From an uncultured Alphaproteobacteria bacterium (GTDB lineage: Bacteria > Pseudomonadota > Alphaproteobacteria > CAAHEQ01 > UBA3637), in assembly GCA_934202735.1 (NCBI GenBank), contig CAKPYH010000004.1, forward strand, positions 73,407 to 137,406: a stretch of 64,000 nt of DNA, in the 5' to 3' direction. Under the pieces are notes generated by a model that was not told the DNA's origin, ran no database searches, and saw only the letters and a list, made by a program, of their open reading frames with translations. This document shows positions 34,721-35,991 of the stretch, piece after piece; the first letter of the stretch is position 1; each line of letters begins with the position of its first letter. The position numbers and the translations under genes are program-made.

Positions 34721-35314
34721 TTATTTCTCCTTTGCTGTTAACAAAGTGAGTTCTTTAGCTTTTTTAATATCCAAATCTTCGCTCAGTTCTAAACCTAAGT
34801 TTGTTAAAAAAGACCAAAGCTTTTTCTTTTCCTTTTTTATATCTTCCAAAGAGGAATCTGAAAAATCAATAGGGCTTTCGCATTCAAGTAAAACACCTAA
34901 ACCATCTACATTTTGAAACGCAAAGTGAAAATCACCTCTTTTCATTCCAATAACATCATATTTTACATCAACTAAAGTTTTAAATCCCAGAGCTGAAAAA
35001 AGTTTTTTTGCTTGGAATAAATCATCACAAGGGATATTATATTTTTCTTCAGATATCACTTCTCCATTCACATACTCTTTATTCTTATAGGTAATTTGTT
35101 GGCATATTCTATCATCGTCTTTCAAAAATCTTAATAAGACACAATGCGACAAGATGTTTAAAACGGATGTTTCATCAATTGTTTCATTGTTTTGGGACAA
35201 ATATTCATCTTCCACTCTGCCTAACTTTGATATTATAAATCCTTGCTCCTTCAGTTTTTTTACCTGTTGTTCTAAATTACCCATAACTCGCGAAGTGATT
35301 TCAACTTGTTTCAT
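34721..35314 (-). CDS. CYTH-like (triphosphate tunnel / CyaB-like) domain protein, degenerate N-terminal ExExK
   Basis: NVDGLGVLLECES (hG.FhEhE-like), LLRFLKDDDRI..ITYK; start taken at MKQVEITSRV. Confidence 0.35.
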   Translation of the reverse strand: MKQVEITSRVMGNLEQQVKKLKEQGFIISKLGRVEDEYLSQNNETIDETSVLNILSHCVLLRFLKDDDRICQQITYKNKEYVNGEVISEEKYNIPCDDLFQAKKLFSALGFKTLVDVKYDVIGMKRGDFHFAFQNVDGLGVLLECESPIDFSDSSLEDIKKEKKKLWSFLTNLGLELSEDLDIKKAKELTLLTAKEK

Positions 35315-35316
35315 TT

Positions 35317-35529
35317 TTATTCTCCCGCGTGTCCTTTGCTTAATATAAAACATGGCTTTTTATGATTGTTCGCAGAATGATTGAAAACAGCAGAATAAGG
35401 ACATGCTAAAATTCCCACACACGAAAAACAACTACCTATATACTCTGCCGGATCAGAATAAGTCATTTTTAATGTTCGTATTCGTATGTTTCTAATATGA
35501 TCTTCTAATTTCATGTTTGTTCCAATCAA
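35317..35529 (-). CDS. Small Cys-rich hypothetical protein
   Basis: Tight spacing between Nudix and CYTH-like genes. Confidence 0.2.
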   Translation of the reverse strand: MIGTNMKLEDHIRNIRIRTLKMTYSDPAEYIGSCFSCVGILACPYSAVFNHSANNHKKPCFILSKGHAGE

Positions 35530-35544
35530 TAAAATTAAATAATT

Positions 35545-35991
35545 TTAGTCAGTTGGACAACGTTCAGAATAAAAAACAGTTTGCCAAATATTTTGCAACG
35601 CTTGTACTGTAGTAGGGGCTATTTTTTCTACAGGTGGTAGATTATCTTTATCAAAAAACATCATATTTGAACACTTTGTTGGTTCTAAATTTCGTATTTC
35701 TCCTTGAAAATCCTTTACAAAAAAATAAAGGTCCATTCTCTTATTCTCCCCTGCTAAATTATGAACAAGATGAGCAAAAACAACATCTTTTGTCTCCACA
35801 TTGATTCCAAGTTCTTCTTTTGCTTCGCGGATAACAGTTTGTGTGGCAGTCTCATTTTCTTCTATATGTCCAGCAGGTAAAACCCACCAACCATCTTTAA
35901 AATATCCATCTGTTCGGTAAAATAATAAAAACTTGTTATCCTTTTCAAGTATAAAACTAACACTTGCGTTGAATTTTACTCTTTCTGACAT
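35545..35991 (-). CDS. Nudix hydrolase
   Basis: Nudix box GHIEENETATQTVIREAKEELGI. Confidence 0.8.
   Translation of the reverse strand: MSERVKFNASVSFILEKDNKFLLFYRTDGYFKDGWWVLPAGHIEENETATQTVIREAKEELGINVETKDVVFAHLVHNLAGENKRMDLYFFVKDFQGEIRNLEPTKCSNMMFFDKDNLPPVEKIAPTTVQALQNIWQTVFYSERCPTD

Follow-up and report, generated by a model that had tools for sequence, protein, structure and literature searches.

Proteins of the CYTH or triphosphate-tunnel (TTM) fold carry on strand 1 an ExExK motif that supplies metal and phosphate ligands, and the fold alone does not tell cyclases from triphosphatases. Nudix hydrolases are recognised by the box GX5EX7REUXEEXGU together with a PF00293 match above the Pfam gathering threshold. 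A gene of each kind, with a short open reading frame (ORF) between them, lies at positions 34721-35991 of a 64,000-nucleotide stretch (the window) of contig CAKPYH010000004.1, from the metagenome-assembled genome (MAG) of a gut alphaproteobacterium. A first-pass annotation read the three as an operon in which the CYTH-like and Nudix enzymes could generate and degrade a nucleotide signal. The analysis presented here favours, with a probability of roughly 0.6, a different explanation, namely that the locus is a mosaic of AT-rich foreign cargo, assembled by recombination within a defective lambda-like prophage, that encodes two independent hydrolases and no signalling pair. The Nudix protein is ordinary, the middle ORF is a pseudogene stub, and the CYTH-like protein is an unannotated variant of a known fold family with a non-canonical invariant motif.

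The three open reading frames and their joints

The features of the cassette and its borders are as follows (positions in the window, strand, description).

36076-36597, minus: S49 prohead protease N-terminal fragment, 173 amino acids (aa), the left border; PF01343 covers profile positions 5-47 of 154 only; G+C fraction (GC) 0.51
36025-36053, minus: sigma-70-type promoter-like site, TTGACA-17 nucleotides (nt)-TAAAAT, matching 11 of 12 consensus positions and lying 34 nt 5' of the Nudix start
35545-35991, minus: MutT-like Nudix hydrolase, 148 aa, intact; PF00293, E 4e-17
35317-35514, minus: 5' stub of a transketolase N-terminal-subunit gene, 65 codons; 68% identity to residues 1-63 of protein P0168
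34721-35314, minus: predicted CYTH-fold (triphosphate-tunnel-like) protein, 197 aa, of a divergent unannotated family; TIGR00318, AlphaFold2 and Foldseek
34347-34607, minus: C-terminal half of a tail-terminator gene, the right border; phrog_4204, E 2.7e-7, profile positions 70-143 of 147; GC 0.46

In the ORF listing of the window the three minus-strand ORFs share one orientation, and their AT-rich character, remarked on in the first pass, is borne out by a GC of 0.31-0.33 against 0.46-0.51 in the flanking phage fragments. The spacers, given earlier as 2-16 nt, become 30 nt (Nudix to stub) and 2 nt (stub to CYTH-like gene) once the start codons are corrected. The promoter-like site, read 36053-36025, is the top-scoring one in 34200-36700, and a terminator scan found no terminator-like site 3' of the CYTH-like gene. 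Because the block is AT-rich and co-oriented, is preceded by a near-consensus promoter and has no terminator-like site after its third ORF, the three ORFs are taken as real and are probably co-transcribed from one strong promoter.

The identification of the first gene as a canonical Nudix hydrolase stands. The protein scores 62.9 bits against PF00293, where the gathering cut-off is 21.1, and its box, GHIEENETATQTVIREAKEELGI, is intact and reads G-HIEEN-E-TATQTVI-RE-A-K-EE-L-G-I. Its top NCBIfam matches are of the PRK08999, NudG and MutT types, which are nucleoside triphosphate (NTP) pyrophosphohydrolases. Further matches are to PDC-S07, a single-gene candidate of PADLOC (E 1.5e-14; PADLOC-DB 2.0), and to a phage MutT/NUDIX PHROG (E 7e-16). 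The equivalog cut-offs of the MutT/NudG families are nevertheless missed (45.3 versus 148 for PRK10776, 47.6 versus 156 for PRK10546 and 37.9 versus 97.9 for TIGR00586). Compared with two other copies of the block (L001 and L002), the gene has a ratio of non-synonymous to synonymous differences (pN/pS) of 0.20-0.25.

The middle ORF had been described as a 70-aa Cys-rich peptide. This length follows from an alternative TTG start at 35529; by homology the ORF begins with the ATG at 35514 and is 65 aa long, and it is a stub, the 5' part of a gene for a transketolase N subunit. An exhaustive homologue search found P0168, a protein of 261 aa that carries PF00456 (Transketolase_N), and the NCBIfam transketolase N-terminus gives a weak match (E 2e-4). 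The four Cys residues fall in or beside a GSCFSC motif common to the transketolase N-subunit homologues P0168, P0174 and P0181. An N subunit comprises a domain of ~260-280 aa with a thiamine-diphosphate-binding GDG...NEG motif, and the stub, which ends at SKGHAGE followed by a stop codon, terminates upstream of the corresponding motif of P0168 (VGNGEMNEG). Moreover, the window has Tyr in place of the His in the EHIGS motif of transketolase, and comparison with copies L002 and L003 reveals one synonymous and 7-9 non-synonymous differences (pN/pS 1.8-2.3). A gene for a Cys-rich peptide was rejected on the basis of the transketolase homology and a pN/pS of ~2.

The joint on the CYTH-like side is located by the one intact context of the Nudix gene that was found. 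On the contigs encoding P0168 (L097 and L098) the order is a cytidylate-kinase/ATP-grasp protein, Nudix, a full-length Transketolase_N gene (261 aa) and a transketolase C-subunit-like gene, and the Nudix protein is 90% identical in amino acid sequence to that of the window. This arrangement (L097:425-4130 and L098), in which the cytidylate-kinase-like/ATP-grasp protein is 589 aa long, resembles a pathway for small molecules or sugar nucleotides and not one for DNA repair. Window positions 36087-35326 align to L097 2191-2952 at 84.6% DNA identity; the aligned stretch includes the promoter and DNA 5' of it, and breaks off at codon 63 of the transketolase gene, with ~10 nt left to the start codon of the CYTH-like gene. 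The CYTH-like gene can be aligned with its proteobacterial relatives (L008 and L023) from 35315-35320 onwards. The Nudix-CYTH adjacency therefore reads, on these alignments, as a recombination joint that truncates the transketolase gene following Nudix in the intact context.

The same Nudix, at 86-89% identity, was found elsewhere, each time with an independently damaged transketolase gene (L099-L104). In L102-L104 the transketolase is cut at codon 73, beside a resolvase and a WYL protein, and in L099-L101 it is frameshifted at ~codon 52, near a serine recombinase. The Nudix gene is thus intact in at least four different contexts while the neighbouring transketolase decays. Because the stretch shared with L097 and L099 reaches beyond the promoter, as far upstream as 36087, the promoter-like site at 36053-36025 can be assigned to the mobile Nudix piece. 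The homology of the stub, the truncations elsewhere and the pN/pS of ~2 as against 0.20-0.25 together indicate that the middle ORF is a dead, decaying gene remnant and that promoter plus Nudix is the selected mobile unit. At the block joints (26-47 kb), a search for direct and inverted repeats gave short AT-rich chance matches only, and sites of the att or attC kind were not found.

The surrounding prophage keeps a lambda-like order: terminase nuclease fragment, split portal, S49 N-terminal fragment, tail-terminator C-terminal fragment, tail tube, chaperone, tape measure and a gpJ-like gene. Phage pieces with a GC of 0.46-0.51 alternate with AT-rich cargo of GC 0.25-0.39. The Nudix-stub-CYTH cassette occupies the expected position of the head genes, between the truncated protease and the tail terminator. 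The head genes themselves are absent, and the prophage therefore cannot make capsids. The truncation of the S49 protease, with its joint near 36087, is identical in L001 and L002. A megablast search with 34200-36700 gave no match in E. coli genomes, and its sole match in a phage collection was a 198-nt S49 stretch in an unannotated fecal phage fragment.

Fold and motif of the CYTH-like protein

The third protein, first listed at 210 aa, is 197 aa long. The longer version begins at 35353 and overlaps the middle ORF, whereas the start adopted here is the ATG at 35314 (MKQVEITSR), whose residues M1, K2 and Q3 are conserved in 86 homologues. The protein covers the TIGR00318 cyaB (class IV adenylate cyclase) model end to end (E 1.5e-9), with 38.0 bits lying under the 57.95 cut-off. 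The window protein has no match to the Pfam CYTH family PF01928 at E <= 0.1; one homologue, P0008, has a precomputed PF01928 match. A profile built from 29 homologues matches the Pyrococcus CYTH structures 1yem (E 7e-5) and 2dc4.

An AlphaFold2 model based on the 29-homologue alignment has a predicted local distance difference test (pLDDT) value of 92.1 and a predicted template modelling score (pTM) of 0.86. When this model was compared with the Protein Data Bank (PDB) using Foldseek, the top matches were 2een, 2dc4, 7ns9, 1yem and 2fjt, with E-values of 3e-11 to 1e-8 and TM-scores of up to 0.75. Ranks 1-23 are all CYTH/TTM proteins, as are most of the 50 matches listed, and Mediator Med18 subunits make up much of ranks 24-50. 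The proteins matched include PH1819 (E 3e-11), PH1012, SaTTM, Pfu-838710, YpAC-IV, AtTTM3 and ThTPase. The 197-aa protein is, according to the model, an eight-stranded CYTH/triphosphate-tunnel protein, in agreement with the fold proposed in the first-pass annotation and contrary to the first of its two refuting conditions, a fold other than CYTH.

The earlier observations of an LGVLLECES segment and of a degenerate ExExK (VEITSR) were also correct, and the latter turns out to be a property of the whole family. In the window protein ExExK is replaced by E5-I-T7-S-R9 (E-x-T-x-R), and the family N-terminus reads M-K-Q-[IV]-E-[IV]-T-x-[RK], with E5 and T7 each present in 86/86 homologues and Arg or Lys at position 9 in 75/86. 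A gapless HMMER alignment to EIEVK of 2dc4, together with the strand-to-helix spacing, places E5 at the first Glu, T7 at the second Glu and R9 at the Lys; the other register (Q3-x-E5-x-T7) also leaves ExExK broken. When the family was compared by hhalign with a canonical CYTH paralogue cluster from these loci, the alignment was confined to the C-terminal half (E 0.06) and so does not fix the N-terminal register. In the sequence alignment, E144-x-E146 (within LGVLLECES), R62, K77, K79, E89 and K91 are invariant in the 86 homologues. The pN/pS of the gene is 0.16 against close relatives, and a truncated 112-aa variant (P0242) is present in another strain. As judged from its residue conservation, the family is a conserved, divergent CYTH subfamily and not a decayed copy. 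The CYTH-like protein and the stub have no match in PADLOC-DB 2.0, and the CYTH-like protein has no PHROG match.

Conservation of the locus and competing explanations

The Nudix-stub-CYTH trio recurs in L001-L003 only, and these are copies of the same block at ~94% DNA identity. Nudix homologues of 67-80% identity, from Alphaproteobacteria MAGs, have no CYTH-like neighbour and lie in unrelated neighbourhoods. Neighbours of the CYTH-like gene were counted in 74 species-level loci with CYTH-like homologues, mostly from gut Clostridia and Bacilli MAGs with one Pseudomonadota MAG. The ORFs of these loci were clustered and the neighbours then counted with hidden Markov models (HMMs), the Nudix HMM being iterated. 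The counts, by distance from the CYTH-like gene, were as follows.

Deoxythymidine monophosphate (dTMP)-kinase-like P-loop kinase: 26/74 loci within 5 kb, 13/74 within 300 nt
Protein of ~553 aa with an invariant CxxxCxxC (divergent radical-SAM): 22/74 within 5 kb, 0/74 within 300 nt
NADAR protein: 21/74 within 5 kb, 3/74 within 300 nt
GreA-like factor: 18/74 within 5 kb, 14/74 within 300 nt
All four of these partners: 15/74 within 5 kb
Nudix: 12/74 within 5 kb, 3/74 within 300 nt

Eleven loci have a Nudix gene within 3 kb, and any of the four operon partners lies within 5 kb in just one of the 11. Beyond the window the Nudix-CYTH relation is a loose thematic link only. The four partners, by comparison, are tied to the CYTH-like gene and to one another by fusions: CYTH-like with kinase in P0084, kinase with the 553-aa protein in P0336, the 553-aa protein with NADAR in P0326, P0331, P0355 and P0367, and the 553-aa protein with NADAR and GreA in P0376. 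The kinase of this Firmicutes operon matches the viperin-associated kinase VakA (1e-14) and PDC-M51B (4e-26), and many CYTH-like homologues are accompanied by the kinase alone, in stable housekeeping synteny. Elsewhere the CYTH-like gene is found in the order His_Phos_1, CYTH-like, Ham1, Ham1 (L008) or CYTH-like followed by Ham1 (L023), and loci L066, L072, L081, L030 and L031 combine Nudix, a Nudix-Ham1 fusion, kinases, HAD, His_Phos_1 and canonical CYTH. By gene content, then, the CYTH-like gene sits amid putative nucleotide house-cleaning genes in the proteobacterial clade and in some Firmicutes. In the literature searched, neither the Nudix-CYTH arrangement nor the five-gene Firmicutes operon has been described.

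Under the favoured explanation, two pieces would have been brought together. One would be a promiscuously mobile unit composed of the strong promoter, the intact MutT-like Nudix gene and the dead transketolase 5' stub; the other would be a single CYTH-fold gene, joined ~10 nt upstream of its start codon. Both pieces together would have replaced the prophage head module between the S49 and tail-terminator fragments. Transcription of both intact genes probably starts at the Nudix promoter, and both are under purifying selection. The Nudix protein is predicted to convert an NTP-type substrate to the nucleoside monophosphate and pyrophosphate, and the CYTH-like protein to act in a metal-dependent manner on a triphosphate-bearing substrate (NTP, modified NTP or polyphosphate), its Thr-for-Glu metal site probably narrowing or changing the chemistry. 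Both would most likely be independent nucleotide-pool house-cleaning or salvage cargo, a theme suggested by the other Nudix, GNAT and kinase genes in the island and by the Ham1, His_Phos_1, HAD and kinase genes beside CYTH-like homologues elsewhere.

Several points weigh against this interpretation. The density of Nudix genes near CYTH-like genes is 0.47 per 10 kb within 1 kb, as compared with 0.18 per 10 kb at 3-8 kb. The invariant Thr, which takes the place of a catalytic Glu in ExExK, may point to altered chemistry or to a protein that only binds. Close spacing behind a shared promoter leaves room for a functional pairing of recent origin, and a conflict-related role of the cargo is possible, given the SoFic protein, reverse transcriptase, HelD/GajB-like helicase and viperin-like fragment in the island.

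A dedicated second-messenger pair, in which one enzyme makes and the other erases a signal for defence or as an anti-defence sponge or eraser, with the small ORF as a third component, is nevertheless highly improbable. The tight packing of three ORFs behind one strong promoter fits such a pair, as do the inclusion of class IV adenylate cyclases in the CYTH fold, the PDC-S07 match of the Nudix protein and the defence-type genes in the island. However, the adjacency appears to be a joint that destroyed the gene following Nudix in an intact operon, and the would-be third component is a decaying transketolase remnant. The Nudix-CYTH arrangement is not conserved outside near-identical copies, Nudix lying within 300 nt in just 3/74 loci and its own homologues being without a CYTH-like neighbour. 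The ExExK motif is not intact, and the CYTH-like protein lacks any PADLOC or PHROG match. The signal-generating and signal-degrading couple of the first pass is not upheld, since the second of its refuting conditions, a lack of co-conservation elsewhere, is what the neighbourhood counts show, and the Nudix-stub-CYTH 'operon' is no system but ordinary mosaic cargo.

It is improbable, too, that a decaying prophage carries the cassette as a functionless hitch-hiker whose ORFs are intact simply because insertion was recent. The retained near-consensus promoter, the intact Nudix in at least four contexts and the pN/pS of 0.16-0.25 in both intact genes, compared with ~2 in the stub between them, all speak against it. 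In its favour are the fragments that surround the cassette (the split portal and the S49, terminase, tail-terminator, radical-SAM and transketolase stubs), the truncated P0242 in another strain and an arrangement that varies between strains. The CYTH-like gene might alternatively be an orphaned part of an undescribed five-gene gut-Firmicutes system that would make or handle a modified viperin-type nucleotide. In the window, its product and the Nudix protein would then be antidotes hydrolysing toxic nucleotide analogues of this type, and the genes immunity or counter-defence cargo. This is unlikely. The operon is found in 15-26/74 species loci, fusions link all its parts, its kinase matches VakA and PDC-M51B, and both a VakA-like kinase and a fragment of a viperin-like radical-SAM gene occur in the island of the window; yet no partner of the four could be detected in the window, the viperin-like gene there is fragmentary and belongs to another cargo block, and the many homologues with a kinase only, in housekeeping synteny, fit metabolism equally well. 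HMMs of the kinase, 553-aa, NADAR and GreA-like partners found nothing in six-frame ORFs of the window, and BLASTP of the window kinase, ASCH and radical-SAM-fragment proteins gave no match in the 74 loci. A fuller version, in which the E-x-T-x-R subfamily is the fifth component of a modified-nucleotide system comprising a VakA-type kinase, a radical-SAM protein, NADAR and a GreA-like RNA-polymerase secondary-channel factor, and in which the window orphan together with Nudix is an antidote, is distinctly unlikely.

Taking the Nudix-CYTH juxtaposition for a defence or anti-defence system is a false lead. The locus is instead a clean example of cargo-cassette assembly in a dead prophage, with a promoter-Nudix unit dragging a dead stub into several unrelated contexts. 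The more interesting lead lies outside the window, in the CYTH subfamily with its fusion-linked gut-Firmicutes operon, which is a reasonable target for work on modified nucleotides and RNA-polymerase rescue.

The prophage island and comparison with known systems

The island that holds the cassette begins at ~14 kb of the window and extends to a tRNA-Lys at 46519-46594, which is the only hit of an Rfam scan and the gene at which the prophage is integrated, and housekeeping genes lie on both flanks on the same contig. The lambda-family portal gene (39132-40649, minus) is present as two ORFs of 237 aa and 257 aa, ~30 nt apart, which suggests a frameshift or nonsense lesion. Relative to L001 and L002, a 2.6-kb block is inserted in its 3' end. 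This block consists of a short reverse transcriptase (RT; 36951-37697, plus; 248 aa, GC 0.25), with weak retron, group II and Drt3a-type matches, and an adjoining SoFic-type Fic protein (37988-39052, minus) with a C-terminal winged helix-turn-helix domain and a PADLOC SoFic match of 1e-50. No Rfam non-coding RNA was found near the RT-SoFic block. L001 and L002 lack both this block and the helicase-tube block, and the island is therefore in flux.

The helicase (31737-34274, minus) is an 845-aa UvrD-like protein with weak N-terminal similarity to GreA and weak HelR, HelD and GajB matches, which suggests a HelD-like RNA-polymerase-associated motor. Its gene, another piece of AT-rich cargo, has a promoter-like site to itself (34339-34311); it is inserted between the tail-terminator fragment and the tail tube, and is absent from L001 and L002. 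A further cargo block, at 27106-29971 (minus), has three parts. In one, a 198-aa ORF, a viperin-like radical-SAM domain (pVip 3e-5, viperin_w_prok 1.4e-4) is represented by its N-terminal portion only; another encodes a 543-aa protein whose sole recognisable domain is a C-terminal ASCH, and the remaining one a P-loop kinase similar to VakA and to deoxynucleoside monophosphate kinases. A phmmer search with the 543-aa ASCH protein gave no match among PDB sequences. This block may be a degraded or atypical viperin-type module, judging by these domain matches. Between the terminase fragment and the portal gene, AT-rich cargo at 40694-42552 (minus) encodes a 408-aa protein with a weak phosphoribosyltransferase match and a match to PADLOC PRTase_III-A (1.6e-5), beside a T4 gp30.3-family protein.

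Two further Nudix genes (43920-44408 and 45496-46218) and two GNATs (43525-43941 and 44773-45348) adjoin the tRNA-Lys. The Tenericutes/Bacilli MAG loci L030 and L031 likewise have Nudix together with GNAT genes in the vicinity of CYTH-like genes, with 4-5 Nudix genes in a row. The two flanks differ sharply in composition (11059-13983 versus 55573-57036): glyS has a GC of 0.32 and the left 14 kb ~0.34, compared with 0.47 for dnaB and ~0.50 for the right 16 kb. Genes for sugar modification and additional paralogues resembling class II tRNA synthetases are likewise present in the left flank. Some of the 'core' flank may itself be a horizontal acquisition, or else the contig of the MAG could be a chimera.

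Set beside the cargo of prophage and satellite hotspots, such as morons and defence islands, the cassette likewise consists of AT-rich foreign genes with their own promoter, inserted among or replacing structural genes, with strain-variable content and defence-type genes nearby. The window differs in that its backbone is heavily fragmented and without capsid capacity, and in that a search of its block joints gave neither repeats nor att-like sites. With the MutT/NudG-type pyrophosphohydrolases the window Nudix has in common the canonical box, the single domain of ~150 aa and the top NCBIfam matches. It differs from them in missing the equivalog cut-offs widely (45-55 bits versus 148-245) and in the sole intact context that was found for it, which is a split transketolase and a cytidylate-kinase/ATP-grasp protein rather than DNA repair.

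Among described CYTH/TTM proteins (PH1819/PH1012/Pfu-838710, SaTTM and CyaB/YpAC-IV), the CYTH-like protein shares the size of ~180-200 aa and a predicted eight-stranded tunnel with interspersed helices, and its family keeps, by sequence alignment, the C-terminal acidic ExE (E144, E146) and the invariant R62, K77, K79 and K91. The family departs from them in having E-x-T-x-[R/K] in place of ExExK, with Thr in 86/86, in scoring below threshold for Pfam CYTH and TIGR00318, and in having partners of its own (dTMP-kinase-like, radical-SAM, NADAR and GreA-like). The plant proteins TTM1 and TTM2 (PDB 7z67), in which a P-loop kinase is fused to a TTM domain, differ from P0084 in that its domain order is reversed and its kinase is dTMP-kinase-like, not uridine-kinase-like; the window copy, moreover, is without an adjoining kinase. 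The coupling to a P-loop kinase is nevertheless similar, with adjacent genes in 13 loci and a fusion in P0084.

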